Source: Bdellovibrionales bacterium (GTDB lineage Bacteria; Bdellovibrionota; Bdellovibrionia; Bdellovibrionales; JAMPXM01). From it: 64,000 nt of DNA. The stretch lies in assembly GCA_043784965.1 (NCBI GenBank), contig JAYVXS010000165.1:14834-78833 (forward strand), written 5' to 3'. The notes beneath the pieces are model-generated. The model worked only from the letters and a program-made list of their open reading frames with translations, did not search any database and was not told the origin of the DNA. Shown here piece by piece: positions 1,802 to 58,840 of the stretch. Both the position numbers and the translations under genes were made by a program. Numbering within the stretch: the stretch's first letter is position 1; the number at the start of each line of letters is the position of its first letter.

Positions 1802-2644
1802 ATGAAAAATTTTCTTCCATTTTTAATAATTGTGGCAGTGTTTTCAAGTTGTGCAACGATGCGCAAACCGGGCTCTGGAAAGCTAAAGGTGAAAGAAGAA
1901 TTATTTCGCGATCTAAAGGCTTGCTTCATAGCCTACGACCTCAATACGGACAAGATTGTTGCCGAGAGAGGGGGCGCCAATTGCACTGAAAGAGCCCCGG
2001 CTTGTTCGACCTTTAAAGTTCCGCTTGCACTTATGGCGTTTGACTCGAAAGTGATTGCTGACGAAAGCCATTCATTCAAATGGGACGGCGTGAATCACCC
2101 CATCAGCGCCTGGAATCAAGACCAAACTGCCACAACCTGGATGAAAGAGTCCGTTGTCTGGGTTTCACAAACCATCACCCCAGAGATTGGCGTCGAAAAA
2201 ATAGCTGAGTATTTAAAACTCTTTAATTATGGAAATGGCGATTTATCTGGAGGCCTTACCACCGCTTGGCTACCTATGAAATCTAAAGGGCCTGGCTCGG
2301 CGACACTACTTATATCACCCAATGAGCAGCTCGAGTTTATGAAGGGCTTTTGGAAGCAAAGCTTCAAGATATCACAGGATGCCTATAAGAAAACAAAACA
2401 CTTGATTCAGCTCGAAAGTCTACCCCATGGTTTTTTTATGAGCGGCAAAACTGGATCGGGCTTGGTCGGAGAGCGTGGCCGAACACGGCTCGGTTGGTTT
2501 ATCGGTCATGTCGAAGGGCACGGCTTTCAGTTGCTTACAATTATGAAATTTTTAGATAGTGACGCTCAAAGTTTGAAGCGCCCCGCCGGCGAACAAGCTA
2601 AAGAAATGACCTTGAGAATACTACGCGCCAATGGTCTACAATAG
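1802..2644 (+). CDS. Class D (OXA-type) serine beta-lactamase, lipoprotein
   Basis: 280 aa with lipobox-like FSSC. The class D motifs occur in canonical order: STFK, SVV (SxV), YGN, TAWL Trp, KTG, GWFIG. Confidence 0.8.
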   Translation: MKNFLPFLIIVAVFSSCATMRKPGSGKLKVKEELFRDLKACFIAYDLNTDKIVAERGGANCTERAPACSTFKVPLALMAFDSKVIADESHSFKWDGVNHPISAWNQDQTATTWMKESVVWVSQTITPEIGVEKIAEYLKLFNYGNGDLSGGLTTAWLPMKSKGPGSATLLISPNEQLEFMKGFWKQSFKISQDAYKKTKHLIQLESLPHGFFMSGKTGSGLVGERGRTRLGWFIGHVEGHGFQLLTIMKFLDSDAQSLKRPAGEQAKEMTLRILRANGLQ

Positions 2645-2703
2645 GCAGTCTGCAATAGGCAATCTACAATAGGCAGTCTGCAATAGGCAGTCTACAATAG
2701 GCA
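2634..2703. repeat. 14-bp tandem repeat x5 (GTCTRCAATAGGCA)
   Basis: Five head-to-tail units read directly. Unit 1 contains the last codons (CTA CAA) and the TAG stop of the beta-lactamase gene. Confidence 0.95.
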
Positions 2704-4842: not shown

Positions 4843-4872
4843 AGGAGTCCTTAGCTTGGACTCCTTTTTTTA
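4843..4872 (+). terminator. Rho-independent terminator
   Basis: AGGAGTCC, 7-nt loop, GGACTCCT, followed by a T7 run. Confidence 0.75.
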
Positions 4873-4885
4873 TCGAGTTAGGTTC

Positions 4886-5033
4886 TTCAGTTTCAGGGCC
4901 GCCGCAACCGATCTCGGTTTTTTAGTTTCAGTACCTGCGCCAGTACCTGTATCTGTCCTGCACCTGTACCTGCACCTGCACCTGTACCTGAAATCTGTTT
5001 AACTGTCTCACCGACCCTGCACTCGGCTTTTTC
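4886..5033 (-). repeat. Dispersed intergenic repeat, copy D (both modules, split by a YACCTG hexamer microsatellite)
   Basis: The reverse complement reads ...GCCGAGTGCAGGGTCGGTGAGACAGTTAAACAGATTTCAGGTACA..(CAGGTR)n..GGTACTGAAACTAAAAAACCGAGATCGGTTGCGGCGGCCCTGAAACTG. This aligns with the copies at 13705, 19935 and 51348. Confidence 0.7.
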
Positions 5034-5063
5034 AAATATTGCCAAATAAAACAATAAGCACCC

Positions 5064-7746: not shown

Positions 7747-7806
7747 CTTAGTGATAAACTTAGTGATAAACTTAGTGATAATCTTAGTAATAAACTTAGT
7801 GATAAA
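7747..7806. repeat. 12-bp tandem repeat x5 (CTTAGTGATAAA)
   Basis: Five units fill the whole pilW-like / large-ORF intergenic gap. On the coding (-) strand each unit reads TTTATCACTAAG, which carries TAT CAC TAA, the last codons and stop of the pilW-like gene. Confidence 0.95.
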
Positions 7807-13572: not shown

Positions 13573-13704
13573 CTGTTTTTCTCCTAATAAGGCGTAATTA
13601 GAGTAATAGGAGCTAACACAAATTAAAATGGCTTGCAAAGGCTAGAGCCATTTGAGCATTTTTTGTAGCAGAGTAACTTAGGTGGCGGATTGAGTGGGTT
13701 CTTT

Positions 13705-13838
13705 CTTTTTCTAGTTGTTTAAATGTGGAAACCCCGAGTTCAGGGACGGGGATACAGGCAAACTGTACACACCGACTCACCCAAAACTGGGACCGAAACT
13801 GAAAAACTGCAAGCAGTCGCCGCTGCCGCGAAACTGCC
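13705..13838 (+). repeat. Dispersed intergenic repeat, copy A (5' and 3' modules)
   Basis: CTTTTTCTAGTTGTTTAAATGTGGAAACCCCGAGTTCAGGGACGGGGATACAGGCAAACTG...GGGACCGAAACTGAAAAACTGCAAGCAGTCGCCGCTGCCGCGAAACTG. It aligns with the copies at 4886, 19935 and 51348. Confidence 0.7.
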
Positions 13839-14079
13839 TCTTGATTTCTCTATATAATTAGACCATTAACCAAAAGATGATAGAGCCATAGTGTCGTAGA
13901 ACTTAACCCAGCCCTGAATTCGAGCTGTATTTTCGCTCGATAAAGTAGGCTTGCCCTAGGTACCCATTCCGACCAATATTGCAGCGACCGTCAAAAATTT
14001 TCTGTGCTTTAAAATTTTGCCAGCTTTGCCATCGAGGGATTCTGAGTCGTTCAAATTCACTCCCTTTAAAGCGTGGGTT

Positions 14080-14340
14080 TTAGGCAGCTTTTTGTCTTGC
14101 TAACCAGAGATCATACTCCGCTTGTATTCTCACCCACATTTCAGCGCTTGTTCCGAGTACCCTCTCAAGGACAAGCGCAAACTCTGGAGAAATCGATCTT
14201 TTAGCATTTATGATCTCATTTATTTTGCGAGGAGCGCAATCACAGCTTTCTGCAAACTGTGACTGATTGAGCCCAAGCTCTTTCAAATAGACCTCATTTA
14301 AAACTAAACCTGGATGCATGGGTTTTGGACTTTTAATCAT
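14080..14340 (-). CDS. higA: HigA-family antitoxin (XRE HTH)
   Basis: The start is taken at MIKSPKPMHPG, 4 nt after the higB stop. HPGLVLNEVYLKELGLNQSQFAESCDCAPRKINEIINAKRSISPEFALVLERVLGTSAEMW is typical of HigA/VapI. Confidence 0.8.
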   Translation of the reverse strand: MIKSPKPMHPGLVLNEVYLKELGLNQSQFAESCDCAPRKINEIINAKRSISPEFALVLERVLGTSAEMWVRIQAEYDLWLARQKAA

Positions 14341-14344
14341 TAAG

Positions 14345-14641
14345 TTAACCTCTGTGATAATTTTCAATTTTTACATCCAAGAATTCACCGCTCTTGAATT
14401 TAAATGTAATACACCAAGGAAGCTTTATCGTGACACTCCACTGGTCTTTCCGGTCCCCTTTAAGTTTATGGAGACGAATATTTGGTGGCTGCCCTTTAAT
14501 CTTTAGATCCTTTAGTTCGTTTGTCCCGTGCATAATAGTCAAAAGTGCCTTAGTTCGAATCCATATATCTTGTGGGAGCGTCTTCGACTTGTCCTCCTCC
14601 CAAATTTCTTGAGCTATTTTGTTTGCAAAATTGCGAATCAT
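14345..14641 (-). CDS. higB: HigB-family toxin (plasmid maintenance system killer, RelE/ParE superfamily)
   Basis: 98 aa. LHKLKGDRKDQWSVTIKLPWCITFKFKSGEFLDVKIENYH matches the hkLkGdr..wSi.v...wRitF.f......v.yeDYH signature. The toxin is upstream of the antitoxin, as in hig loci. Confidence 0.8.
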   Translation of the reverse strand: MIRNFANKIAQEIWEEDKSKTLPQDIWIRTKALLTIMHGTNELKDLKIKGQPPNIRLHKLKGDRKDQWSVTIKLPWCITFKFKSGEFLDVKIENYHRG

Positions 14642-14869: not shown

Positions 14870-14905
14870 GCCAGTATATTGCCAGTATATTGCCAGTATA
14901 TTGCG
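14870..14905. repeat. 11-bp tandem repeat x3.3 (GCCAGTATATT)
   Basis: Read directly. It lies about 230 bp upstream of the 15136 start codon, in the higB / large-gene divergent region. Confidence 0.9.
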
Positions 14906-15135
14906 TTCCAAGCAAAATGAAGGCCCAGTGAGGCTCAAAAACGGCCCATTAAGTCTTAAATTCTTTGCCAAGATTAATTTAGACTGCTTATAAGTTCAAA
15001 AAAAATTAGGCACAAATCCTGCTTTAGGATCCTCTCGAAATCGAGTGTGGAGCCATTTTGGAAACTGACGTATGTCAGAATTCGGGTGTTTTTCACATTC
15101 TAAAATCTAAACCCAAACGAATAAGGAATCAAAAA

Positions 15136-18100
15136 ATGAAGAAATTTTCAAAATCTCCATTACTGATTGCTCTGATCTCACTTTCGATGATGGCATCGAC
15201 TGTGACCTCAAGCTCAGCATATGGTGCAAACACCCCGGCGCAAGACCAAGCCGCCAAGGATAAATTAGCCGCTGAAAAGCTGGCTGCTGAAAAATTAGCT
15301 CAGCAAGAAGCTCAACAAAAAGCTCAGCAAGAAGCTCAACAAAAAGCTCAACAAAAAGCTCAGCAAGAAGCTCAACAAAAAGCTCAACAAAAGGCTCAGC
15401 AAGAAGCTCAACAAAAAGCTCAGCAAGAAGCTCAACAAAAAGCTCAACAAAAAGCTCAGCAAGAAGCTCAACAAAAAGCTCAGCAAAAGGCTCAGCAAGA
15501 AGCTCAACAAAAAGCTCAAGCTGCGAAGCCAGCTCCTCCGGCTCCAGCTCCTCCGGCAAAAGTTGAACCAGTAGTTATCAAGCCAGCTCCAGCTCCAGCG
15601 CCAGTTCCTCCAGTTGCTACCAAGCCAGCTCCTCCGGCTCCAGCTCCACCGGCAAAAGTTGAACAGGTAGTTATCAAGCCAGCTCCGGCGCCAGCGCCAG
15701 TTCCTCCAGTTGCTACCAAGCCAGCTCCTCCGGTAGACAAAGCGGCACAAGAAGCCAAGGCTAAAGCCGATCAAGCTGCTGCTGATAAAGCTAAAGCTGA
15801 TAAACTTGCACGCGAAGCTAAAGAAAAATTGGAGCGCAAGCCCGCTCCGCAAAATCCAGTAGGTCCTCCACCTGTAGTCGTAGCTAAAGCTGAAACTCCA
15901 GCTGAAGTTGCTGCGAAATTAGAGCAATCTAAAAAGCAAACTGCGGCGCAAGCTGCGGCAGAACGAGCTCATAAAGATAAATTAGATCAAGAGATTGCGA
16001 ATCAGGCGGCACAAAAAGCTGCTGATCCAAAAGTAAAAGACGCGCAAAAAGCAAAAGAAGATGCGGCGCAAAAAGCCGCTGATGAAAAAGCTAAAGAAAT
16101 TGCAGCGCAAAAGGCTCAAGAGAGAAAAGCCATTAAAATTGCAGAGCAAGCAAAGCTTCCGGTTGTAGTTAAAACACCACAACAAATTGAAGCAGATGCA
16201 GCAAAGGCAAAAGCGGATGCAATAAAAGCTGCTCAAAAAAAAGAGAAAGCAAAAGAGCGCATTGCTGTACCAGCTAAGACTGCTGAAATAAAAAAAGAAA
16301 ATGAAGTAAAAGCAGCTGAAGTTGAAGTGGCAAAGGTTCAGAAAAAAGAAGTGGTTGCGGTTGCAAAACAGCAAGCCATCCTTGTAAAGCAAAATGCTGA
16401 CATTAAACAAATCAGCCAGAACCCAACTGCCAAAATTACTCCAGCCCAAGAAGCTGTCATTGCGCAAAACAAGAAAACTATTGAGACTCGACAAGCAGCT
16501 CAAGCCAATAAGCCAGTAGTAGCAGCACCAACTCACTCAACTTCAGTTGTTGAATTGAAGACGGTCAATGGCGCTAAAATTGGTCTTGATCCCTCTATTA
16601 AAGTAAAAGTCGTTGTCCCAGTAACTGTTATCGTAAAGCCGGTAGTAGTTGTTGGCGGCGTAGCTGTAGCCAGCCATATGCGATCAGATGAAACCCAGAA
16701 GAATATTCATGAGGCGAGAATTCGCTCTCAGAATACGCAAAATATAATCATCAACAAAACTGACATACAAAGTGTAACCATCACAAAAAACATCACCCAT
16801 GTAACTAATGTTTATGTAAATAATTATCAAAACGTAGTGATTGAACGCTCACGTATTTACAATAATTACTACCATGAACCACAAAAGGTTTATAGAAACT
16901 ACTATAGCAGCTATTACGATCACGGCTTTCGTGGTGGATATGCCTACCCAGTTCGGGTTGACATCGCAATTCACCAGCATTTCTGGAATCCATTAGTATT
17001 GTGGATGTTTGATGATTCAAACAATAACGATTTCTATTGCCGTTATTATGGTAATTCATATTGCTATAGCTACCCAGTTCGTCCATTTCGTTATGCAAGA
17101 GTTTTCTATCCTACCGATACCATGCGAGATCTCGCAATTGAAGTCAGTGGCATGAGCTACTACCGCCATACTTACTATAGAACTGCTCTTGAGACTTTGA
17201 CTGACAAATTAAATAGTCAGATTTCAAATTACGTTTCAGGCAGATTCTATTTCGGACCAAACGATATCGTGATCAATCACTATCGCAATCTTGGCTTCGG
17301 ACAAGTAATGGTCGAAGGTTTCGTAGATCGCGGAAGTTTACATGTGGCCTTCAAAGGGCACCTTGACCTTGAGAATCCATACAACTCAAGCGTTTTCGTA
17401 CCAACCATCAGTGACTACTCGCCAGTTGCTGCTGGCATCGCTGTCCTAAATGCAATTGTTGCTCTTGAGCAAGCTGCCAACGTACGTGAGAATGTTCCTC
17501 AGAACGTGGTTTACGAGGAACCAGCTCCCCCACCAATGCCAGTAGTAAATGTGACTTGCCGTACATTTAGTGGAGATGCTAAGTTTGTTGGAGCCTCGCC
17601 AGATTCAGGTACAGCCTCACAAAGAGCCATCGAGCATTGTACTAAGAGTGCACGTGCAAATGCGACTGAGTGTACAGCGAATATATCTTGCGATGACGGC
17701 GTTTCTTACGCTCCAGTTGTAAGCTGTTCAACGAGCAGCACCGACGCTAACGGAGACGCGGTAAGCTTCTTCCGAAAAGGCCGCGATGCGGATTACGCTT
17801 CACAAATGGCTCAACAGCTTTGTATTGCTGATGATGCGACTAGTGATGTCGATGCTTGTTCAAGCCCGGACAACTTAACTTGTATTGCTTTGGACAAATC
17901 AGTCTTGAATCCAATGGCATGTAACGTGACTGTGCCGAATATTCCGGCGCCATTTAGCTTTCAGAGTTATGATAGCGATAAAGCTCGTAACCGTGCAGTA
18001 TCAGACTGCGTAACTGCAGAAGGCACGGATGTAGACGATTGTAATAACAGCGACTTCTTGAGTTGTGATTATGTCAATGCGGCACCGGTAGAACCACCCC

Positions 18101-18303
18101 CTCCAGCAGCATCTTGTATTGCTACAGGTCCTAAGACTAAGCAGTTTCCAGCTGGTCAGTCTTATCCAAGTGGTCCGGCTTCAGATTTGCGAGCAGCCTA
18201 CAATGTCGCGGTAAAAGCTTGTGTTCGCGCAAATCCATCTAGCATCGCTATCTGTAAAAGTAGCGCAATAGAGAATTGCCCGGGCGCAGGTTCAGGCAAC
18301 TAA
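15136..18303 (+). CDS. Large secreted mosaic repeat protein (Gln-rich, Pro-rich, Lys/Ala-rich, Tyr/Asn-rich, 4x Cys4 modules)
   Basis: The start is taken at MKKFSKSPLLIALISLSMMASTVTSSSAYG (SD AAGGAA, signal peptide). The mature protein is 1055 aa. The internal repeats are listed as separate features. A strong terminator follows. Confidence 0.75.
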   Translation: MKKFSKSPLLIALISLSMMASTVTSSSAYGANTPAQDQAAKDKLAAEKLAAEKLAQQEAQQKAQQEAQQKAQQKAQQEAQQKAQQKAQQEAQQKAQQEAQQKAQQKAQQEAQQKAQQKAQQEAQQKAQAAKPAPPAPAPPAKVEPVVIKPAPAPAPVPPVATKPAPPAPAPPAKVEQVVIKPAPAPAPVPPVATKPAPPVDKAAQEAKAKADQAAADKAKADKLAREAKEKLERKPAPQNPVGPPPVVVAKAETPAEVAAKLEQSKKQTAAQAAAERAHKDKLDQEIANQAAQKAADPKVKDAQKAKEDAAQKAADEKAKEIAAQKAQERKAIKIAEQAKLPVVVKTPQQIEADAAKAKADAIKAAQKKEKAKERIAVPAKTAEIKKENEVKAAEVEVAKVQKKEVVAVAKQQAILVKQNADIKQISQNPTAKITPAQEAVIAQNKKTIETRQAAQANKPVVAAPTHSTSVVELKTVNGAKIGLDPSIKVKVVVPVTVIVKPVVVVGGVAVASHMRSDETQKNIHEARIRSQNTQNIIINKTDIQSVTITKNITHVTNVYVNNYQNVVIERSRIYNNYYHEPQKVYRNYYSSYYDHGFRGGYAYPVRVDIAIHQHFWNPLVLWMFDDSNNNDFYCRYYGNSYCYSYPVRPFRYARVFYPTDTMRDLAIEVSGMSYYRHTYYRTALETLTDKLNSQISNYVSGRFYFGPNDIVINHYRNLGFGQVMVEGFVDRGSLHVAFKGHLDLENPYNSSVFVPTISDYSPVAAGIAVLNAIVALEQAANVRENVPQNVVYEEPAPPPMPVVNVTCRTFSGDAKFVGASPDSGTASQRAIEHCTKSARANATECTANISCDDGVSYAPVVSCSTSSTDANGDAVSFFRKGRDADYASQMAQQLCIADDATSDVDACSSPDNLTCIALDKSVLNPMACNVTVPNIPAPFSFQSYDSDKARNRAVSDCVTAEGTDVDDCNNSDFLSCDYVNAAPVEPPPPAASCIATGPKTKQFPAGQSYPSGPASDLRAAYNVAVKACVRANPSSIAICKSSAIENCPGAGSGN
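15298..15520 (+). repeat. Intragenic 12-nt periodic repeat (GCTCARCAARAA, encodes AQQ[EK]) x~18
   Basis: Direct reading gives AQQEAQQKAQQKAQQE... with higher-order 24/36-nt units. Confidence 0.9.
15526..15734 (+). repeat. Intragenic 96-bp tandem repeat x2.2 (encodes KPAPPAPAPPAKVE[PQ]VVIKPAPAPAPVPPVAT)
   Basis: The units start at 15526, 15622 and 15718 and are nearly identical. Confidence 0.9.
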
Positions 18304-19850: not shown

Positions 19851-19934
19851 TTAATTCTCCTGGTTGAGATTTAAGCTAATATCATAATCTCTAAAAATAA
19901 AGTTGAATCTTTGAATTTGCTTCACAGGTTCATT

Positions 19935-20139
19935 CTTTTTTTAGTTGATAAAGTGTGGATAAAGTGTGGATAAACTGATCTCAGCGACAGTGAGACGGTT
20001 AAACTGATTTCAGGGGCACTCGTGAGCCCTCAGCCGATCAATTAGCCGCATATTTATATATAATGAGCCACCTATAACTGGGACCGAAACTGAAAAACCG
20101 AGATCAGTAGTTGCTGCCCCTAAACTGCCCCTAAACTGC
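19935..20139 (+). repeat. Dispersed intergenic repeat, copy B (5' module, AT-rich insert, 3' module)
   Basis: TTTTTTAGTTGATAAAGTGTGGATAAAGTGTGGATAAACTGATCTCAGCGACAGTGAGACGGTTAAACTGATTTCAGGGGCA...GGGACCGAAACTGAAAAACCGAGATCAGTAGTTGCTGCCCCTAAACTG. It also contains internal 11-bp duplications at 19947-19975 and 20114-20139. Confidence 0.7.
19954..19973. promoter_or_regulatory. Two tandem perfect DnaA boxes (TGTGGATAA), 11-bp spacing
   Basis: TGTGGATAA is at 19954-19962 and again at 19965-19973. This is the exact complement of the TTATCCACA consensus. Confidence 0.6.
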
Positions 20140-20336
20140 TATACGTAACTGGCAACAAAAAAGGTAGGGCCAACTTCACAAAACCAATCTGCTCTATAGA
20201 ACGAAGCGTAAAAATTTGGTTTAGGTGCCCTCAAAAAATAGTTCATTTTCCAGGCACCCACTTTGACTAAGATTTGAACTCATAGTTGCCAGAATCCCAT
20301 TTGTCAGAACACGCTAAATAGGCTTAGCATCTAGAT

Positions 20337-21254
20337 ATGAATTTCAAATTCTATCCGACTCTCCGCCGCGCTCTCCATCTTGCTGCCGTTCTAGCGTTTA
20401 CTAGTTGTGCCACTTCCAAAGTCACCACTTCGAATTTTAGTAATATCAAGTTAGGCACCTGGTCACTTACTCAAGAGTTAAAGGGAGAAGGAGTCATACT
20501 TATTCCGCAATGGCATCTTGCCTCGTCAATCTCAGCAAAGACCGACGCCAAAATAGCCCAAGAAGTAAATCAGCGCGCCATTTTCACCCAACTTTCCACC
20601 TGGATCGAGGCCCATACTATTGATGCAATCTTAGCCGAGGGTTGCGAGGGGGCAATCGATGCGCAGACCGATCAAAAATTTAATGGCTGGTCAATCAACG
20701 ATTTGAAGGGTGAATTGAGTAAACAAAATTCTATAGATGCAATATTGGCCCCAATTGCATTTAAGGTGAGAGTGAAATACCCAAATGACATTCAGGTGGT
20801 TTGTGCCGACAACAAAAGTCTAATTCAGAAAAATCAACTGGCATTGTCAAACTTACGTGGATTTTCAGGGTTTAAGTTTCGCATCGAACAAAGCACACTT
20901 TCTCAGAGCGATCATCAAACTTTTCTTAATGCCAGTCGTGAAGCCTTAAGCTTAGCAAAAAATTCGCCCGAAAAAATAGTCATTGAAAGCTTGAATTCTG
21001 AAGTTAAAAAATCCCTTGCGGACTTTGATTTAGCCATTCATCAACGCAATGAAAGCTTCATTTCAAAATCCAGGTCAATTCACGGAATAAAAGTGATCGT
21101 GATCGGAGCTGTTCATCTCAAAGACTTGCAGCTTCAACTTAGCCAAAGCAATATCGCTTTTTCAGTTTGGACCCCAGTTGGTATCGACGCGAAAGACACT
21201 CAATTACTCGAGCAGCTCAAGTCGAAATTGAAGTTACCAGAAGGTGGCTCGTGA
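20337..21254 (+). CDS. Lipoprotein, possibly TraB/GumN family
   Basis: 305 aa with lipobox AFTSC. The C-terminal KVIVIGAVHLKDL and the RNESF segment resemble TraB/GumN signatures. The call is weak. Confidence 0.4.
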   Translation: MNFKFYPTLRRALHLAAVLAFTSCATSKVTTSNFSNIKLGTWSLTQELKGEGVILIPQWHLASSISAKTDAKIAQEVNQRAIFTQLSTWIEAHTIDAILAEGCEGAIDAQTDQKFNGWSINDLKGELSKQNSIDAILAPIAFKVRVKYPNDIQVVCADNKSLIQKNQLALSNLRGFSGFKFRIEQSTLSQSDHQTFLNASREALSLAKNSPEKIVIESLNSEVKKSLADFDLAIHQRNESFISKSRSIHGIKVIVIGAVHLKDLQLQLSQSNIAFSVWTPVGIDAKDTQLLEQLKSKLKLPEGGS

Positions 21255-24008: not shown

Positions 24009-25172
24009 TTAAATGTAGGATCCGCTTCGGATTTTATCGACAATGATCTTCTCAGGGGTCAAAGGATCGTTTGGATTCACCGCGAACAATGCCTGTTGCT
24101 CACATCGCAGTTTGTTTTTAACCAGCCAGTTGAGAATATCCGCAAGTTTACGATTTTTCTTGTCTTGAAAAAATGGATCATTCGCCAAAGCATCTTTAGC
24201 TTTTTTAAGCGATCTCGACTCAACTGGGTCCTTTTCGCGAACTTCGTAGCAATCCAAATCATATTTCTTCACATCCTCTGGCAAAACTCCCAGAAAATGA
24301 ACAGAAGGTGCCGAGAAATCAGAGTTACGAATCAGTGATGCCGCAGAACCGGCCTTCAAAGTTCGAAAAATATTTTGCAAAGTATAGGCGTCGAGATCTC
24401 CAAAAAAGAATATTGGAACTTTAAGTTCGGTTTGAATTAGTTTACACCAGCCGCGCACTCCATTCGACGGAACCCCTTGAGCACCCATGACAATACAGTT
24501 ATGTCTTTTCGTCATGCCATTTGACACAAGGGTTCCCGCTGTACCTTCGGACTCAACAACCAGGCAAAACTCGATTTTTTTCTTGGCCTTTAGCCTTAAA
24601 GCTTGAGGTTTATTTTTCGGCTGAAAGGGTGTTGTTCCGAGAGAACTTAAATCAACGACGGCACGGTCTCCATCCGAAAGAGTTTCAGTCACTACCAGAT
24701 GTTGCGAATAAGTTTGGCCGCCGCGATCATTGGCAAAACAATTGAGCTCTTCGCGGTAGACCTCGAGCATATCACCAATAAAATCAATAATCGAATCGCT
24801 CTCTTCTTGCGCCGTAAAATCAAGCGGCTTTAAGTTCTGAGACGACTTCACCATACCTTTTCCGATGTAATAGAGTTCGCGCTTGGTATTGACCGCACCG
24901 GTGCGAATATTTCGCAGTAGCACCTCAAGCATAAAAACCACTCTCGCCATTTTCTGAACGCTTGATACATTGAGCTCGGTGCGAACTCTCTTACTACCTG
25001 GAGTCAAATAACCGACTTTTGGATTATACAATGAGTTGTCGAGCGAACATTTAACCGCCTCAAGAACGGGGCGATTTGAATTTTCGAGCTCCTTGAGCAT
25101 GATATCACACAATGCTTTTGCTTCTGCCGGGATATCTTTAGTGAGCTTTCGAATCCTAATAATTTTATCCAT
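24009..25172 (-). CDS. top6A: DNA topoisomerase VI subunit A (Spo11-like)
   Basis: 387 aa. The 5Y-CAP catalytic motif is KRELYYIG. The Toprim Glu lies in VVESEG and the DxD in FFFGDLDAY. Confidence 0.85.
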   Translation of the reverse strand: MDKIIRIRKLTKDIPAEAKALCDIMLKELENSNRPVLEAVKCSLDNSLYNPKVGYLTPGSKRVRTELNVSSVQKMARVVFMLEVLLRNIRTGAVNTKRELYYIGKGMVKSSQNLKPLDFTAQEESDSIIDFIGDMLEVYREELNCFANDRGGQTYSQHLVVTETLSDGDRAVVDLSSLGTTPFQPKNKPQALRLKAKKKIEFCLVVESEGTAGTLVSNGMTKRHNCIVMGAQGVPSNGVRGWCKLIQTELKVPIFFFGDLDAYTLQNIFRTLKAGSAASLIRNSDFSAPSVHFLGVLPEDVKKYDLDCYEVREKDPVESRSLKKAKDALANDPFFQDKKNRKLADILNWLVKNKLRCEQQALFAVNPNDPLTPEKIIVDKIRSGSYI

Positions 25173-25184
25173 TATATCATCCCT

Positions 25185-27086
25185 TTATTTCGATTTTTTC
25201 TGAGTCGCGGCTTTTTCGGTGGCCTTCGCTTTAGACTTTGAGGCTGTTTTCTCAGTCCCCTGGGCTTGTTTTTCCGTCGCCTGTTTTTCAGTCGATTTGA
25301 CAGTCGATTTGACAGTCGAATCTTGGGCCTCTTTAGCCGTGGTTCCCTTTTGCGTGCCCTTATCTTTAGAGCCCTCAAGCTCTTCGTCTACTGGAGCTTC
25401 AAATTCAGTTAGCTCTTCGGTGAGCAATTCACTCTCAACATGGCGCTGATCAAATTTCACCCCAGCTTTGAGGGCTTTTTCTTTCAAAGCTTGCAATCGA
25501 ACCTCAGCAACTGACAGGTCTTTTTCAGCCGCACGTGTGTCTCGACCCAACAGCTTTTTCAAGCCTTCTTCGGCATTTTTTTTGCGTGTCTGATTAGCGC
25601 CGGTAATACGAACCAAGCCCTCAACCAAGATTGGACCGAATTGTTCAATATGGGCCAATTTTCTCTCAAGATCTGCTTCTTTATTTTCTTTGCGAATATG
25701 GCGAGAGAGCTGCTGGCCCGCTTGCATCAATGTACGCCTGATTTCCTCAATGAGCTCATCGGATGCATCTATTGTTTCTTTCGAGGCATTTTTAAACTTA
25801 ATAAATGGCGAGACCACACTAATGGCGAATACATAGGGGCCGGAAGGAATACTATCTTTACCTTGCGCAAGCCCATACGAACGCCAATTGACACTTTCAA
25901 CAGCTTGAGTGATCGCACATGAACTCTTATCAAACTGCAAGGGCACACGATTGGCGAAGCGAAGAAGTTGAATAGATTCATCCATGCTACCTCTGGTTAA
26001 AAACCGGGCCAAGGCCACTTCAACAACGACGGGTTTAAAATCACAAATTCGCGGTTTGCGGGTTACCACTGAGAAGAAATCGATGTCACCAAGTCGCATA
26101 ATACTTTTCGAAAGTGCTTCTTCACCAACAGTAAGTACTGATTTAGTAGAGGGGCTTTGCAATTCAACTTTTTGAATGACCTGAAAAGCAGCTTTAAATT
26201 CGCCTTCCTTCATTTTCATTACCGGCATATTCAACAAAGATTTTGGCATTCCGCCTTTAACGAGATCCTTAATTGTTTGATCACTCACTCGAGAAAAGCC
26301 AGTTTTCAAGAATTTGCCGAAATCAACTTTCCCGAAAAGGTGCGCGTGAGTCATAAATTCGCCAAGCTTCATCGTATGTGGATGCGGCAAAGTACTCTCT
26401 GGAATTTCAGGACAAATATCAGTAACCCGCTTTACCTTCACCCATTCTTGATCGACAACTTTGTAGTCTAAACTCATATGGGGATTTACTAAAGTAGTGC
26501 CCTCTAAATAGGTCAAAAGTCCACCATCACCATTTAATTGAATTCGTCCATCAATACGAAACTCAACACGGGTCCCATGCGGACGATCCCAATCGATGCT
26601 TTCCTTTTTCTTAAGGACACCCTTGTTAGCTTTAATATCGACGTCGACAAGACAACTAATTGCCTTGCGCATATTTTTCTGGATTGTCGTCACCTGCACA
26701 CCCGAAGCATTCGTCAGCTGAGCCCAGGTTGTCGCTGCCGAAATGCCTATACCCTGTTGTCCGCGTGAACATTGGCCTTTACCAAATTTACTAGAGGCCA
26801 GATACTCGCCAAAAACCTTTGCAATATCATCCGGATCAATCCCGGGACCATTATCTTCAACGACGATTTTAATTAGATCAGTTGATTTCGAACTTCCTTC
26901 GCCGATTTTTGTAATTGAAACCTTCAAGTCCGGCAAAATTGAGCTTTCTTCACAGGCATCAAGTGAGTTATCAACGGCCTCTTTAAGAGTCGTCAATACG
27001 GCTTTAAGTGGCGAAGAAAATCCCACCTGTTGCAAATTCTTTGCGAAATACTCCGCGGTACTACTGCTGGTAATTTTTTTTGACAC
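25185..27086 (-). CDS. top6B: DNA topoisomerase VI subunit B (GHKL ATPase)
   Basis: 633 aa. Bergerat-fold motifs are EAVDNSLDA (N box), EDNGPGI (G1) and GQQGIG (G2). A ~90-aa Lys/Glu/Thr-rich C-terminal tail is present. The stop lies 12 nt before the top6A start. Confidence 0.85.
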   Translation of the reverse strand: MSKKITSSSTAEYFAKNLQQVGFSSPLKAVLTTLKEAVDNSLDACEESSILPDLKVSITKIGEGSSKSTDLIKIVVEDNGPGIDPDDIAKVFGEYLASSKFGKGQCSRGQQGIGISAATTWAQLTNASGVQVTTIQKNMRKAISCLVDVDIKANKGVLKKKESIDWDRPHGTRVEFRIDGRIQLNGDGGLLTYLEGTTLVNPHMSLDYKVVDQEWVKVKRVTDICPEIPESTLPHPHTMKLGEFMTHAHLFGKVDFGKFLKTGFSRVSDQTIKDLVKGGMPKSLLNMPVMKMKEGEFKAAFQVIQKVELQSPSTKSVLTVGEEALSKSIMRLGDIDFFSVVTRKPRICDFKPVVVEVALARFLTRGSMDESIQLLRFANRVPLQFDKSSCAITQAVESVNWRSYGLAQGKDSIPSGPYVFAISVVSPFIKFKNASKETIDASDELIEEIRRTLMQAGQQLSRHIRKENKEADLERKLAHIEQFGPILVEGLVRITGANQTRKKNAEEGLKKLLGRDTRAAEKDLSVAEVRLQALKEKALKAGVKFDQRHVESELLTEELTEFEAPVDEELEGSKDKGTQKGTTAKEAQDSTVKSTVKSTEKQATEKQAQGTEKTASKSKAKATEKAATQKKSK

Positions 27087-29386: not shown

Positions 29387-29507
29387 CTTTTACTTGGACC
29401 AAGCAAGCTAGATTTTAGGCCAATCGCCTCGCTAAGAAAAAACTAAGTTAAAAAACTAAAATAAAAATCTAAGATAAAATATCTATTGCGTTAATAGGTA
29501 AATTTTA

Positions 29508-32028: not shown

Positions 32029-32037
32029 ATTCAGAGA

Positions 32038-32135
32038 TTCAGGGTCTCAGGGACTGGCAACCTGAGGCCTGAAACCTGAGGTCTGAAACCTGAGACGGAG
32101 ACTGGCAAACCGCTGCGGCTGCGGCTGCCTTGGAT
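32038..32135 (+). repeat. Left direct repeat (98 bp) flanking the four-helix-bundle gene pair
   Basis: TTCAGGGTCTCAGGGACTGGCAACCTGAGGCCTGAAACCTGAGGTCTGAAACCTGAGACGGAGACTGGCAAACCGCTGCGGCTGCGGCTGCCTTGGAT. It is identical to 32851-32934 except for one extra 14-nt unit and one substitution. Confidence 0.95.
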
Positions 32136-32141
32136 CACTTT

Positions 32142-32438
32142 TCATTTCATCTTGGTTAATTTATAGATCATCCCACCCAATTGATCAGCCAGTTTGAAAG
32201 ATTCTTTTTGCTCTAGTATCGTCAGCAAGGTCTGCACTTCTTTTAAGCTAGCATACGAAATCGCATAAAATCTTGCGCGCTCTTTTGCACTTGGTCGTGC
32301 CGATCCCTCAGTTAAATTTAAGACCACGCTTAAGCTTGCTCGCTCAAGCTGATCTTTTAAAAAGGCCTTGGCTTTGATGTGCTCACATCTTTTGTAAAGC
32401 TGCAATGCCATTTGGTAACTTCTGAAATCTTTTAACAT
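32142..32438 (-). CDS. Four-helix-bundle protein (23S rRNA intervening-sequence protein / Avd family)
   Basis: 98 aa. ...LKDQLERASLSVVLNLTEGSARPSAKERARFYAISYASLKEVQTLL matches the family signature (NIAEG.g r.s.ke...fl.iA.GS..E). Confidence 0.75.
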   Translation of the reverse strand: MLKDFRSYQMALQLYKRCEHIKAKAFLKDQLERASLSVVLNLTEGSARPSAKERARFYAISYASLKEVQTLLTILEQKESFKLADQLGGMIYKLTKMK

Positions 32439-32446
32439 ATAAATTC

Positions 32447-32541
32447 CTTTCGGTGGTGGCGATTTTAATTTGAAAAATCGCGGTTCTTAGTCGCAAGCGA
32501 AACCGCGATTTTTCAAATTAAAATCGCCACAACCGAAAGGA
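32447..32541. repeat. Near-perfect palindrome (40-bp arms, 1 mismatch, 15-nt loop) at the symmetry axis of the inverted gene pair
   Basis: CCTTTCGGTGGTGGCGATTTTAATTTGAAAAATCGCGGTT, loop CTTAGTCGCAAGCGA, AACCGCGATTTTTCAAATTAAAATCGCCACAACCGAAAGG. Confidence 0.95.
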
Positions 32542-32548
32542 TCACATT

Positions 32549-32844
32549 ATGTTAGAGAATTTCAGATCATACCAAATGGCATTGCAGCTTTACAAAAAAT
32601 GTCGGGAACAAAAATTACCAAGATTTTAAAAGATCAGCTTGAAAGAGCTTCAAGCTGTGTGGTCTTAAATTTGAGCGAAGGCTCGGCACGAGTTTCAAAG
32701 AAAGAGCGCGCGAGATTTTATGTGATTGCATTTGCGAGCTTAAGAGAAGTTCAAGCTCTGATTGAGATGGAGGAAGGCCTAAAAGATTTGAATCCACTTG
32801 CGGATATATTGGGTGCTCATTTGTATAAATTGACGCGAAACTAA
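32549..32844 (+). pseudogene. Four-helix-bundle protein paralog, frameshifted
   Basis: ATG 32549 gives MLENFRSYQMALQLYKKCREQKLPRF*. The remainder (KILKDQLERASSCVVLNLSEGSARVSKKERARFYVIAFASLREVQ...) continues in another frame. This amounts to a 1-nt deletion relative to the paralog near 32620. Confidence 0.65.
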
Positions 32845-32850
32845 TAAAAT

Positions 32851-32934
32851 TTCAGGGTCTCAGGGACTGGCAACCTGAGGCCTGAAACCTGAGACGGAGA
32901 CTGGCAAACCGCTGCGGCTGCGGCTGCCTCGGAT
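32851..32934 (+). repeat. Right direct repeat (84 bp) flanking the four-helix-bundle gene pair
   Basis: Same sequence and orientation as 32038-32135, minus one CTGAGGTCTGAAAC unit. Confidence 0.95.
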
Positions 32935-32947
32935 TTCTTCGGTTTTC

Positions 32948-44144: not shown

Positions 44145-44363
44145 AGGGTTTGTTTCTTCCTCCTTTGAGAAAACCTACTTCAGTAAGTTTTCTAACCCAA
44201 AATTGACCCACGCTATTTTTTAAAAAGGCAGGTTTAAATCAAGAGCTTATTTGTTCTATTCGCTATACTTATAGTGAACAGAGTAATCATTTATAGGGCG
44301 GGCCCTTTGAAAGTCAAAGGGAAAAGGCTTGAATTAAACAGAGTTTTTAATAAATAAGGGGGA

Positions 44364-44463
44364 ATTCAGGGTCGGGCAAACCGCAAACTGAAGACAGAGA
44401 CAGATTCAGGCTACTGAAATCAGCGGCGACTGCCTAGGAATTCGTCATAGGAATTCGTCATAG
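44364..44463 (+). repeat. Dispersed-repeat variant (copy G) plus 13-bp tandem duplication (TAGGAATTCGTCA x2.2)
   Basis: ATTCAGGGTCGGGCAAACCGCAAACTGAAGACAGAGACAGATTCAGGCTACTGAAATCAGCGGCGACTGCC shares the words CAGGGNC, GAGAC, GGCAAAC and CTGAAA and the GC-rich tail with the other copies. It lies in the cmk-rpsA spacer. Confidence 0.55.
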
Positions 44464-47721: not shown

Positions 47722-49235
47722 ACTCATCATTTACAAATGCAGACCTCGGTTTTTCAGTTCAGTGGAGTAAAGCACTGAAACTATTGTTGACAGAATTTTC
47801 GCCAGCGGCATTGACCACAACAAATGGATCGGCCGTGCACATCGAAGCGCTTAGTGTTGCAGATTTAAGCCTCTCTGCCTGTGCGCGCTTTTGTCATCAA
47901 TATTTAAAAATGAAAAATGGTGACCTGGCGATCGTCAATGATCCATCGTCAGGCGGCAGCTCATTGAGTGAAGTTTGTTTAGTGAAAGCAATTTTGCTTT
48001 CTACTAAATCTAGTCCAGATCTTAATGCCGACTTTCTGCTGTCGATTCGCTTTAATTTGGGTGGCAGTAGCGATCCGTCGGCAGCCTTTCATAGCTTGAG
48101 AATTCCGCCTACTCCGATTGCTGCGAAAAATGAATTGAACCATGAAATTCTTGCGGCGATTGGCTCCCACCCGGGCGCTTCCTTTGAATTCTTAGAGAAG
48201 CTGAAAGAAAATATTATAAAATTGAACGCTTTAGAACAGCAATTATTGAGGCTCAGAACCCTACCTGGCTTAAGCTTTAGTATGGATCAACTTGATTTCT
48301 ATTTTGATTCAACAAAAAAATCTTTACTCTCCTGGATATCAAAAAATCTTTCGAACGGCGATTTTCATTTTCAACATAAGCTCTCTACAGGGGAACTCAT
48401 CAAGCTGAGAATTGAATGCAAAGAGAATGAAAATATCTTATTTGATTTTATTGGAACGGCTCAATCTGATAGCTTTCAATTAACTGAATTTATGAGTTTT
48501 GCGGCTTGCTTCGCGGCCCTTGAGTCGCTTTTAAACATTGAACTCCCGGCCAATCAGGGCAGTTTTTCAGCCCTGCAACTACGCACCCCACAAAACTCAA
48601 TGCTCAATGCCAAACAGATCAAAAATTCATATATGGCGAGTCGCTTTCATCTTAAAGAGCTTTGCGGATTTTTGCGATCAAGTTTACTAAAGCTAAGTCG
48701 TTCAGGAAAGAATTTCGCTTCAGACTCTGAAGGAATTGGACCCTGCTCGATTGCCTTCAATGCTAAATGCATTTGGGATTTTGATTTGCCTGGCGGCCAG
48801 GGCGGGAGTAGCGAGAAACAGGGCGAACAGGTATTCTCAATTTGGGCAAATCAGCTTTTTACAACTCAGTCTAAATGTGATATTTTTTCAGTTGAAAAAA
48901 CGGAAAGAAAGTTTGCTTTGCAGTTTCAAAATATCAGCAAGCACTCACACTTTCTTGGTAAGGGAATTCATAACGGCGGGGGCGGAATGCAAATGAGTTT
49001 TCTGGTCTTGAAAGAAGCCGAATTTAATATGGTAGCGCCCCAGTTAAAAAATCGAGCGGCTGGTCAATCGGGCGGGAAATCCGGCGAGAAATCAGAAGTT
49101 TCTATTGAGTTCAATGATTCAAAAACTGAAGTCATTGTGAATCATAAGCAAAGGCTTGAGGCGAAAACCTTATTACGCTTTTCCTCAGGTGGAGGCGGCG
49201 GCTGGGGCGATGAAAAAATTGAAGAAGATGAGTAG
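47718..49235 (+). CDS. Hydantoinase B/oxoprolinase (HyuB)-like protein, divergent
   Basis: 505 aa. IVNDPSSGGSSLSEV compares with the canonical NDPY.GGTHLPD. The C-terminal SSGGGGGWGDE compares with GGGGGyGdP. Confidence 0.55.
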   Translation: MNSSFTNADLGFSVQWSKALKLLLTEFSPAALTTTNGSAVHIEALSVADLSLSACARFCHQYLKMKNGDLAIVNDPSSGGSSLSEVCLVKAILLSTKSSPDLNADFLLSIRFNLGGSSDPSAAFHSLRIPPTPIAAKNELNHEILAAIGSHPGASFEFLEKLKENIIKLNALEQQLLRLRTLPGLSFSMDQLDFYFDSTKKSLLSWISKNLSNGDFHFQHKLSTGELIKLRIECKENENILFDFIGTAQSDSFQLTEFMSFAACFAALESLLNIELPANQGSFSALQLRTPQNSMLNAKQIKNSYMASRFHLKELCGFLRSSLLKLSRSGKNFASDSEGIGPCSIAFNAKCIWDFDLPGGQGGSSEKQGEQVFSIWANQLFTTQSKCDIFSVEKTERKFALQFQNISKHSHFLGKGIHNGGGGMQMSFLVLKEAEFNMVAPQLKNRAAGQSGGKSGEKSEVSIEFNDSKTEVIVNHKQRLEAKTLLRFSSGGGGGWGDEKIEEDE

Positions 49236-50601: not shown

Positions 50602-50898
50602 TTACCAATAACTCGTAAAGCCACGAATTGGCAAATAGGATTCTTTCAGCTCGGGTCGCGGCTCGTTATCACATAGCACTGGAGTCTCCTCATCATTGAA
50701 AAAGAGAAAAGGAATGAAAATCTTATGACAATGTATGCAATGCACGAGATCAGACTCATCCTTGCCTGCATTTTGCGAAAGTCGATTGCAAATATGACAA
50801 CGACGAAAGTATAGCTTGAGAGAGGGGTTCATTCTTCGCTCCAATGTCTCAAACTTAGAATTTAGCGTTGAGTCCAGCTTACGCGCACTCATCTGCAA
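50602..50898 (-). CDS. Small Cys4 zinc-ribbon-like hypothetical protein
   Basis: 98 aa. The pairs CHIC...CIHCHK suggest a zinc ribbon. No family recognised. Confidence 0.35.
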   Translation of the reverse strand: MQMSARKLDSTLNSKFETLERRMNPSLKLYFRRCHICNRLSQNAGKDESDLVHCIHCHKIFIPFLFFNDEETPVLCDNEPRPELKESYLPIRGFTSYW

Positions 50899-51347
50899 AT
50901 TTTGGTTTGCGACGGATAAAATGTCTTCCCCACAGATTTTTCAAGTGAACAAATCAAATGCAGATTTGTTCACACTTAGCCCTTGGCTGCTGGGCATATG
51001 CCCTTTGCCATCAAGAAAGCTTACAGAAAGCTTTTTAGCCCCACGTCTTGCCCAAAGCCGCTTGCTACCAATTTAGTTTAATTGATTTTGCCTGTTAAAT
51101 CCAATTTCTCAGCCAACAAATTTTTCGCTCATTTGTGTCGCAAATTGGCTCATGTAGAGGCACTCGAATCTCCTACGGAAATTTTGGAATCGTCTAATGA
51201 CTTTACGCGAAAAATTGTAGCCCTGTTGCACAGATTTCTGGACCTGAATGCGGCCCTATCTTTTTTTGTTGGTATTCTTGCCAATATTCTTGGTGGAATG
51301 ATCTATCGAATTAAAACAAAATGACATCTGCCCGCATGCCGATTTTT

Positions 51348-51428
51348 GGCCCTGCCCCTGAAATCAGTTTGCCGGTCTCACTGTCCCTGTTCTCAGGTTT
51401 TCCACATTTTACTAAGTAAAAAAAACCA
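51348..51428 (-). repeat. Dispersed intergenic repeat, copy C (5' module only)
   Basis: The reverse complement reads GGTTTTTTTTACTTAGTAAAATGTGGAAAACCTGAGAACAGGGACAGTGAGACCGGCAAACTGATTTCAGGGGCAGGGCC. It lies immediately downstream of tpiA. Confidence 0.7.
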
Positions 51429-51432
51429 GGCG

Positions 51433-57591: not shown

Positions 57592-58812
57592 ATGCCCATA
57601 TTTGAATATCGTGGCTTAAATCAGGCGGGCAAGAATCTGCGCGGCACCATAGACGCCGAAAATTTACGTACGGCACGTTCAAAGCTTAAAAAAGATGGCA
57701 TTTTTGTTGTTGACCTCAAGGATAAAGGTAAAGAACAACTCAAGAACAAGAAAAAATCTGGAAGCGGAAAAAAGATCAGCATCGACGAACTCTCGATGAT
57801 GACCAGACAGCTTGCCACTCTAATCAAAGCTAAAATCCCTCTGGTTGAGTCACTAGCTGCGGTCAGCGACCAAGTTGAAAATGAAACCTTAAAAGAGGCA
57901 ACGGCTGATATCAAAAATATGGTAAATGAAGGTGCCCCCTTTTACAAAAGCCTTGCGAAATACCCAAAACTTTTTGATCACATTTACGTAACGATGTGTG
58001 AAGCCGGTGAAGCAACCGGAAATCTAGATGTCATTCTGGTAAGACTTGCTGAATTTAAAGAGGCACAAAATGAGCTCAATTCAAAAGTGAAGTCGGCGAT
58101 TCTCTATCCATTGATCATGTTTATTTTTACTTTAGCCATGCTGGCGGTGATTTTTATTTTCGTCATTCCAAAATTGACTTCAATTTTCGAGAGTGCCGAA
58201 ATGGAACTGCCCTGGTATACACTGGTCGTAATAAATTTCAGCAGTATCTTGGTTAACTATTGGCACGTGATATTAGTTATTATGTTTGGCGCCTACTTTT
58301 CATTTCAAACCTGGAAGGTCTCGACAGAGGGCTCTAAAACATACGATGCAATTCTTTTGAAAATTCCGGTCATTGGCAAACTGGTCAGACTGGTTGCCGT
58401 TTCAAGATTCACGCGAACACTCGCGACACTTTTGCAGGGCGGAGTGCCCATGTTGTCTGCGATGGACATCGTATCAAATGTGGTCGGCAATCACGTATTA
58501 GCCGTGGCCATCATTCAAGCTAGAGATAATATCTCTGAAGGAGAATCCATTGCAGGTCCCTTAAAAAAATCGCAACAATTTCCGCCCATTGTTACTCATA
58601 TGATTAACATTGGAGAAAAAACCGGCGAGCTAGAGAATATGCTGACGCAGGTCAGCGACTCATATGATTTTCAAGTTAAAACCCAAATTCAAGGTTTAAC
58701 AGCCTTGCTTGAACCCGTTATGATCATTATGATGGGTCTGGTAATTGGTGTGATTGTGTTTTCAATTATGCTGCCGATGTTTGATATGGCGAATTTGGGC
58801 GGCAATGGTTAG
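57592..58812 (+). CDS. gspF: Type II secretion inner-membrane platform protein GspF
   Basis: 406 aa with the duplicated GspF/PilC domain and three TM segments. Confidence 0.9.
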   Translation: MPIFEYRGLNQAGKNLRGTIDAENLRTARSKLKKDGIFVVDLKDKGKEQLKNKKKSGSGKKISIDELSMMTRQLATLIKAKIPLVESLAAVSDQVENETLKEATADIKNMVNEGAPFYKSLAKYPKLFDHIYVTMCEAGEATGNLDVILVRLAEFKEAQNELNSKVKSAILYPLIMFIFTLAMLAVIFIFVIPKLTSIFESAEMELPWYTLVVINFSSILVNYWHVILVIMFGAYFSFQTWKVSTEGSKTYDAILLKIPVIGKLVRLVAVSRFTRTLATLLQGGVPMLSAMDIVSNVVGNHVLAVAIIQARDNISEGESIAGPLKKSQQFPPIVTHMINIGEKTGELENMLTQVSDSYDFQVKTQIQGLTALLEPVMIIMMGLVIGVIVFSIMLPMFDMANLGGNG

Positions 58813-58840
58813 GCAATGGTTAGGCAATGGTTAGGCAATG
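58801..58840. repeat. 11-bp tandem repeat x3.6 (GGCAATGGTTA)
   Basis: Unit 1 is the last three codons of gspF plus TA of its TAG stop (GGC AAT GGT TAG). The units repeat head to tail. Confidence 0.95.

Follow-up and report, generated by a model that had tools for sequence, protein, structure and literature searches.

A dispersed intergenic repeat family of a Bdellovibrionales genome as the probable ends and relics of a small mobile cassette

The intergenic regions of a 64,000-nt stretch of a Bdellovibrionales genome (hereafter the window) harbour a short sequence that recurs in dispersed copies, which raises the question of what this repeat is and how it came to be there. The original prediction had described at least seven copies (here A to G) built from a 5′ module and a 3′ module, all of them intergenic and free of open reading frames, and had named a REP/BIME-like protein-binding element, an sRNA family and non-autonomous mobile DNA as possible identities. 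Our analysis points to a mobile cassette of about 0.9 kb, restricted to this lineage and apparently undescribed, of which the repeats are probably the cis-acting ends or decayed remnants. The literature searched contains no account of this cassette, of any Bdellovibrionales repeat family, or of mobility of PF05635 genes, the type of gene that the cassette carries.

Reality, specificity and folding of the repeats

All seven copies were located in the window where they had been placed. In a repeat scan of the window, pairwise links among the copies amount to 76–83% identity over 48–80 nt. Full profile HMMs detected four strong copies of the 5′ module (13700-13766, +; 19930-20019, +; 5054-4983, −; 51429-51353, −) and three of the 3′ module (13777-13851, +; 20068-20144, +; 4943-4877, −), with E values from 1e-17 to 1e-23. 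When each strong copy was left out of the profile in turn, nhmmer found every one again (E 1.9e-7 to 8.5e-16), and the left-out copies reached 27–54 bits compared with a maximum of 9.5 bits among 20 shuffled windows. The repeat family is real, and an effect of base composition is ruled out. Copies E (32038-32135) and F (32851-32934) are 94–100% identical to each other over 43–68 nt and only distantly like copies A–D, and copy G (44364-44434) is a weak member. Of the seven loci, six are found by a broader motif-cluster scan, which reports four clusters in 1.34 Mb of unrelated control sequence; a narrower version also picks up copy C.

The repeat family is specific to this Bdellovibrionales clade. 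Its 5′-module core GTGAGACNGNNAAACNGATTTCAGG has no match in the collection of genome contigs, and the four metagenome matches to this core are unrelated, i.e. one is a chance match in coding sequence and the others represent a single different element seen three times. That element, a repeated sequence of the WLWD/WLWI metagenome assemblies (L002 86-116, L003 2798-2828, L004 2284-2314), has the 25-nt core GTGAGACTGTGAAACAGATTTCAGG in common with the family by chance. As to the position of the host, two MAGs of Bdellovibrionales (isolates GFS_7426 and GFS_4694) have tpiA genes with 80% and 75% identity to that of the window, and the sole record of an identical TpiA protein is in the Logan assembly of SRR23617254. 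Within the window all copies are intergenic; two additional weak matches (21150-21179 and 47740-47762) lie inside coding sequence and were judged to be due to chance.

An alignment of about 20 ends revealed a common anatomy. They begin with a 5′ anchor, (GAA)TTCAGGG-N-C-R-GGCAAAC(T/C)G, which also occurs in a GAATTCAGGGTCAGGCAAACTG-like form, and continue with a variable middle that contains CTGA(A/G)AC-like motifs and is prone to tandem duplication of 11–14 nt. The 3′ terminus is a GC-rich motif, CGGCTG-CGGCTGCC (20 GC-rich ends aligned). Tandem repeats with units of 11–14 nt and three to five copies, resembling the duplications inside the elements, also occur elsewhere in the window (2634-2703, 7747-7806, 14870-14904, 29432-29479 and 58801-58840), in regions that look intergenic by the list of open reading frames.

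Many individual ends can form a GC hairpin, yet its register is not conserved. The consensus of the GC-rich ends folds with only −3.1 kcal/mol in RNAalifold and shows no pair with compensatory change; a conserved hairpin at this end was rejected, as the sequence is kept and the pairing is not. Folds of whole copies have z-scores from −0.2 to −3.8 and no structure in common. The window has no Rfam match at the gathering threshold, and the surroundings of copies D, E and F have none at E≤1; the sole Rfam matches at E≤1 are long-hairpin miRNA models, far below their gathering scores, on a palindrome described below. A role as intrinsic terminator was likewise rejected, because weak 5-bp hairpins on the reverse strand occur in only two 3′ modules and copy C has a separate canonical terminator.

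These results bear directly on the proposed sRNA family, or on structured 3′-UTR elements transcribed together with the upstream gene. Six of the nine elements first examined start within 10 nt past a stop codon on the same strand, and some individual folds are fairly stable, as the lower z-scores indicate. However, copies A, B and G do not follow a gene that is read in their direction, the copies are distinguished by large indels and microsatellites, and neither an Rfam match, a fold common to the copies nor covariation has emerged, so that we regard an RNA function of the family as highly improbable.

A repeat-bounded pair of PF05635 genes

Absent from the original prediction was a pair of divergent genes at 32142-32846, which is bracketed by copies E and F. 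Together, copy E, the first gene, a palindrome, the second gene and copy F occupy 919 nt (32029-32947) and appear to represent a nearly intact unit (Table 1). The two flanks are direct repeats of each other, with 85% identity over 98 aligned positions including a 14-nt indel (score 132 vs a shuffle maximum of 22). Over 43 nt they are 100% identical; apart from this, they differ by the 14-nt indel, one internal substitution and changes at the 3′ end. Copy E itself consists of a 5′ anchor (GAATTCAGRG..TTCAGGGTC..GGCAAC), a 14-nt tandem duplication and the GC-rich 3′ element GGCAAACCGCTGCGGCTGCGGCTGCC.

Table 1. Coordinates of the cassette, its putative relics and associated features in the window.
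Feature	Position	Strand	Remarks
Copy C, right-end module	4877..4943	−	strong bidirectional terminator follows at 4843-4865
Copy C, (CAGGTR)n microsatellite	4931..4990	−	at the place expected for the cargo
Copy C, left-end module	4983..5060	−	directly past the stop (5066-5064) of an 893-aa gene
Copy A, left-end (5′) module	13697..13766	+	nhmmer E 6.7e-19; 2.8e-11 when left out
Copy A, spacer	13767..13789	+	last ~12 nt homologous to the end of the copy B type-2 remnant; weak alone
Copy A, right-end (3′) module	13790..13851	+	nhmmer E 6.4e-21; 5.4e-11 when left out
Possible extra 5′-anchor fragment beside copy A	13895..13925	−	GAATTCAGGGCTGGG; orientation opposite to copy A; weak
Copy B, left-end module	19927..20019	+	11-nt tandem duplication GATAAAGTGTG
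Copy B, "insert"	20033..20077	+	putative last 14 codons and stop of a type-2 gene, ADQLAAYLYIMSHL
Copy B, right-end module	20078..20144	+	11-nt tandem duplication CTGCCCCTAAA
Copy E, left end	32029..32140	+	direct repeat of F; missing from the empty site L100
IVP1, type-1 gene	32142..32438	−	PF05635/TIGR02436 four-helix bundle; 98 aa; intact
Near-perfect palindrome	32439..32548	.	fills the space between the divergent starts; arms 32445-32485 and 32501-32541
IVP2, type-2 PF05635 gene	32549..32846	+	disrupted; 1-nt deletion in a T run
Copy F, right end	32847..32947	+	direct repeat of E
Copy G, single short element	44355..44445	+	GGAATTCAGGGTCGGGCAAACC ... GCGGCGACTGCC; E 0.0022
Degenerate second 5′ anchor	51215..51248	−	TTCAGGTCCAGAAATCTG...; presumed rest of the right end of a cassette at the tpiA site; weak
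Type-1 remnant	51277..51324	+	putative last 15 codons and stop, LANILGGMIYRIKTK; tail to tail with copy D
Copy D, left end	51330..51432	−	directly past the tpiA stop; nhmmer E 5.3e-23; 8.5e-16 when left out

The product of the intact gene, IVP1, matches Pfam PF05635 with E 9.5e-16 (58.4 bits vs a curated cut-off of 33.8) and NCBIfam TIGR02436 with E 1.1e-16 (61 bits vs 24), and it also matches the structure PDB 2gsc (E 4.6e-5). PF05635, which bears the name "23S rRNA intervening sequence protein", is the family of Avd, the accessory protein of diversity-generating retroelements (DGRs) (PMC10053308). Comparison of the cargo with PADLOC gave nothing significant apart from one marginal Cas11f match (E 0.013), and comparison with PHROGs gave no match; viral contigs held no close relative of the two genes, and plasmids only distant single cyanobacterial ones. 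On these grounds an origin of the cargo from a defence system or a phage was rejected. We know of no role of the PF05635/Avd family outside DGRs.

With IVP1 as query, close relatives were found only in similar metagenomes. Related Bdellovibrionales genomes and metagenome contigs contribute eight more loci with the divergent PF05635 pair, five of which are complete on both sides (L086, L089, L091, L092 and L095); in L093 and L094 a contig end truncates the locus, and L099 holds a 38-aa stump and one gene. Wherever both genes can be seen, one is a type-1 and the other a type-2 paralogue. Orthologues of either type are 68–94% identical between cassettes (71–94% for IVP1), and the paralogues within one cassette about 55–64%. 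In each of the nine cassettes the space between the divergent starts (76–110 nt) forms a near-perfect palindrome, despite widely differing sequences; in the window the arms measure 41 nt and are 98% complementary. The loop is asymmetric, and in L086 it is inverted relative to the window and L091, as in a flip/flop arrangement. As far as the sequences tell, this pattern points to recombination of the two arms with each other, or to their concerted evolution.

Of the six cassettes complete on both sides, five (that of the window and those of all but one of the five relatives) have flanks that form significant direct repeats rather than inverted ones (scores 37–132 vs shuffle maxima of 22–29). 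In all five they belong to the repeat family of the window, with a constant polarity relative to the type-1 and type-2 genes. The two flanks of L095 are no longer detectably alike, which we count against the cassette as an explanation of the family. The neighbouring genes differ from locus to locus (rsmB/lysR, DUF4399, RNase G, flagellin/fliD, ccsA and aconitase), and one MAG (GCA_043739525.1) contains at least three pairs, on different contigs. This shows that the unit is present in several copies per genome and in unrelated contexts.

Independently of these comparisons, it may be mentioned that two independent cassettes, that of the window and that of L089 (at about 2750-2770), have a frameshift in the type-2 gene at nearly the same codon, in front of LKDQLER. 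In the window a T4 run (32624-32627) stands where intact relatives have T5. The near-identical site could reflect decay at a hot spot, phase variation or programmed frameshifting.

Filled sites, empty sites and decayed copies

The state before insertion can apparently be seen at two orthologous sites, the only two that were compared with an empty state. In L100, whose rsmB gene is 93% identical to that of the window, the rsmB stop codon is separated from the convergent stop of the lysR-type gene by the five bases agcaa, where the window has the 919 nt of the cassette. As L100 has no element at all at this position, both flanking repeats arrived together with the genes and did not pre-exist as a target. 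At a third rsmB site (L101) the contig stops 42 nt past the stop codon. Downstream of tpiA, L007 has no element, the window has copy D with a gene stump and about 140 nt beyond copy D, and a different single element containing an (ATATCTG)4 microsatellite occupies the site in L006. Another element of L006 follows a PALP gene, at a position where the window has a 4-nt spacer. The empty sites of the relatives could in principle represent precise deletions rather than the state before insertion. Taken as they stand, the comparisons show the whole unit, including both repeats, as an insertion into intergenic space, mostly just past a stop codon. A target-site duplication was seen neither in the 12-nt flanks, which share nothing, nor between the filled and the empty site.

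The association with the PF05635 pair explains the modular anatomy of the family, the insert of copy B and the copy D that had been described as a 5′ module only. The modules themselves are real and would correspond to the left (5′) and right (3′) ends of decayed cassettes. The proposed intact unit comprises a left end of about 100 nt, a type-1 gene in reverse orientation, the palindrome, a type-2 gene in forward orientation and a right end of about 100 nt, the two ends being direct repeats of each other. Internal deletion would have removed the cargo between the ends in copies A and C, left a type-2 stump between both ends in copy B, and left a type-1 stump beside the left end in copy D. Single elements, such as copy G and the two in L006, could have arisen by recombination between the direct repeats, as in solo LTRs.

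In accordance with this scheme, the stump in copy B, immediately 5′ of the 3′ module, resembles the type-2 C-terminus ADQLGACLYKLTH, and that beside copy D resembles the type-1 C-terminus LADQLGGMIYKLTKMK and is arranged as IVP1 is with copy E. The stumps have the polarity of the intact unit, with the reversed type-1 gene next to the left end and the forward type-2 gene next to the right end. In six-frame translations of the 1.6 Mb of fetched DNA, neither the motif L[GA][AG][HCY]LY of the former nor LG[GA]MIY of the latter has any other site outside PF05635 genes. DNA profiles of the two genes match the corresponding regions (type 2 at 20025-20068, profile positions 245-288, E 0.49; type 1 at 51278-51322, positions 248-292, E 0.23), although each match is insignificant individually, and the shortness of the stumps, at 14–15 codons, counts against the cassette. 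The family is intergenic as originally claimed, while the statement that it contains no open reading frame does not hold for copies B and D, which contain or abut short remnants of one. A coding function of the repeats themselves was rejected: copy C can be read through without a stop in the frame of the gene upstream of it, and this is not conserved in B and D. An intact master copy of the A–D subfamily with its T-run/AAATGTGGAAA extension was not found in the fetched DNA. In copy G a 13-nt tandem duplication overlaps the 3′ end and extends to 44463.

From these comparisons of related genomes, the unit is shown to have been gained and lost between relatives and to decay into the observed repeat family. 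Among the identities offered originally, non-autonomous mobile DNA comes closest, in the sense that the copies would be the ends and relics of a mobile unit whose presence varies between relatives. The repeats themselves would then have no separate cellular function.

One may ask instead whether the repeats are host elements of the REP/BIME kind that spread independently, serving as protein-binding sites, stabilisers of mRNA 3′ ends or terminator modules, with the PF05635 pairs tending to land in or near them. REP/BIME sequences are extragenic, lie near the 3′ ends of genes, form mosaics of short modules with a GC-rich segment and belong to one lineage, and the copies resemble them in all of this: they often start directly past a stop codon and are found more often than expected between convergent genes (7 of 13 sites), and two 3′ modules have the weak terminator-like hairpins on the reverse strand. 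A 200-aa gene in L092 (8833-9435, +), 1.8 kb from the cassette, is moreover a distant relative of Y1/RAYT and IS200 transposases. Against such an origin, the empty site in L100 indicates that both flanks came with the genes, and of the four two-module copies, two have a gene stump inside or beside them, with the polarity that the cassette predicts. The family lacks the conserved imperfect palindrome of 20–40 nt as well as covariation, its GC-rich end conserves the sequence and not the pairing, and copy C lies upstream of a separate terminator. No RAYT was found among the scanned ORFs of the window, and the RAYT-like protein of L092 scores 29.8 bits vs a family cut-off of 80 and is not flanked by elements. 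The copies are, in the reading we favour, ends of a gene-carrying unit, and we consider a REP/BIME-type origin unlikely.

Relation to known mobile elements and possible routes of movement

Movement of the cassette is deduced from genome comparison only, and its mode may be approached through the enzymes and termini of the unit. Neither a transposase nor an integrase or reverse transcriptase (RT) was found in the cassette, among the about 40 window ORFs scanned or around the other cassettes. As the cassette has no recognisable recombinase, it would be moved in trans, by an enzyme of the host or of another mobile element that acts on the direct-repeat ends. In eight units, the first 45 nt compared with the reverse-complemented last 45 nt scored no better than shuffled sequences, so terminal inverted repeats were not detected; together with the missing target duplication, this means that no known transposition chemistry is indicated. 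By its proximity, and by this alone, the RAYT-like gene of L092 is a candidate for a trans-acting enzyme.

The copies share several traits with MITEs, as they are short, non-coding, intergenic, present in multiple copies and either present or absent at orthologous sites, and the two-module copies would be both ends of a longer unit after loss of its cargo. Unlike MITEs, the cassette has neither terminal inverted repeats nor a target-site duplication, and the parent unit has no transposase. LTR elements provide another parallel, since direct repeats of about 100 nt bound the cassette, single-element copies exist, and the repeats are near-identical in the cassette for which a close relative has an empty site and diverged in others. 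The differences are that the host is a bacterium, that no RT, integrase, primer-binding site or target duplication was found, and that the cargo consists of two 98-aa genes. With IS200/IS605 elements and PATEs the unit shares the lack of inverted repeats and of target duplication, asymmetric ends in the same orientation and short non-autonomous derivatives; it differs in having no tnpA or tnpB and in ending in direct repeats of about 100 nt. No tnpA lies in the window, and the GC hairpin that many individual ends can form is not conserved in register. The sole Y1-like gene seen, that of L092, is below threshold and unlinked to the elements. The anchors GGCAAAC and GGCTGCC do not fit the attC pattern of integrons (RYYYAAC ... 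GTTRRRY), the copies are dispersed rather than arrayed, and the scanned ORFs include no integrase. Altogether, the copies behave as relics of the MITE or solo-LTR type and lack the defining features of MITEs, REP/BIMEs, integrons and DGRs.

The comparison with DGRs deserves closer consideration. In canonical DGRs, such as that of BPP-1, the variable and template repeats are direct repeats that flank avd and have GC-rich ends. The cassette likewise places Avd-family genes, one of which matches PDB 2gsc, between direct repeats with GC-rich 3′ ends, in a manner reminiscent of the order VR - avd - TR - RT. It is therefore conceivable that the repeats are a template and a target around the Avd-like genes and that an RT encoded elsewhere copies and re-inserts the unit; the 100% identity of E and F over 43 nt would be expected if one template had been copied twice. 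However, no RT was found in the scanned ORFs of the window or in the neighbourhoods of the cassettes, the repeats lie outside coding sequence, and the left repeats differ from the right ones by indels and substitutions of mixed kinds rather than specifically at adenines. Moreover, the cassette has two divergent paralogues instead of a single avd, and many copies at unrelated sites. On balance, a DGR-related retroelement is very unlikely.

The insert in 23S rRNA genes of Leptospira, Coxiella and others is a further relative by content. These intervening sequences contain an ORF of the same family, PF05635, as the cargo of an apparently selfish insert. The cassette differs from them in its location between protein-coding genes, in having two genes around a palindrome, and in its direct, not inverted, repeats.

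The cassette might move by a route of a retro type, for which the Avd-like cofactors, the LTR- or TR/VR-like repeats and the E/F identity over 43 nt might speak, or by a single-strand route of the HUH type, with which the lack of inverted repeats and of a duplication would be compatible. A bolder proposal, which we rate as possible and rather doubtful, is that the recombinase-less direct-repeat unit represents a new class of mobile element, in which the heterologous pair of Avd-like proteins would act as mobility cofactors that recruit an RT or HUH enzyme encoded elsewhere and the flip/flop palindrome would take part in replication or transposition. If it were true, it would explain the occurrence of PF05635 genes in 23S rRNA intervening sequences and beside DGRs, and the PF05635 family would become a signature cargo of selfish insertions.

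Should PF05635 genes indeed travel in pairs, within a cassette that is bounded by repeats and settles behind stop codons, the cassette would represent a testable selfish module, with a defined pair of cis-acting ends and natural empty and filled sites that could help to find the enzyme that moves it. Since the elements are gained and lost between close relatives, they may be useful as strain-level markers. They may also explain why metagenome contigs of this clade tend to break beside such sites, a tendency noticed only in passing.

Several other features of the window merit mention. Between tpiA and a small zinc-ribbon-like ORF, a non-coding stretch of some 300 nt (window 50880-51215, −; L006 10777-11095; L007 8843-9135) is conserved in three genomes, for example in the segments CGCGTAAAGTCATTAG, GGGCTAAGTGTGA and AAAAATCTGTGGGGAAGACATTTTA. 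It has no Rfam match at E≤1, folds with −30.9 kcal/mol in RNAalifold and retains nine pairs through two-sided changes; judged by its sequence, it may be an undescribed RNA or leader. A HigB-like toxin gene with an HTH antitoxin gene (14080-14641, −) adjoins copy A. The region 15058-18303 (+) holds an ORF of 1081 aa that has no Pfam match, a 12-nt repeat in 18.6 copies and 96-nt repeats rich in Pro/Ala codons. Finally, this Bdellovibrionales genome encodes Topo VI A and B, the two subunits of a type IIB topoisomerase, at 24009-27086 (−).
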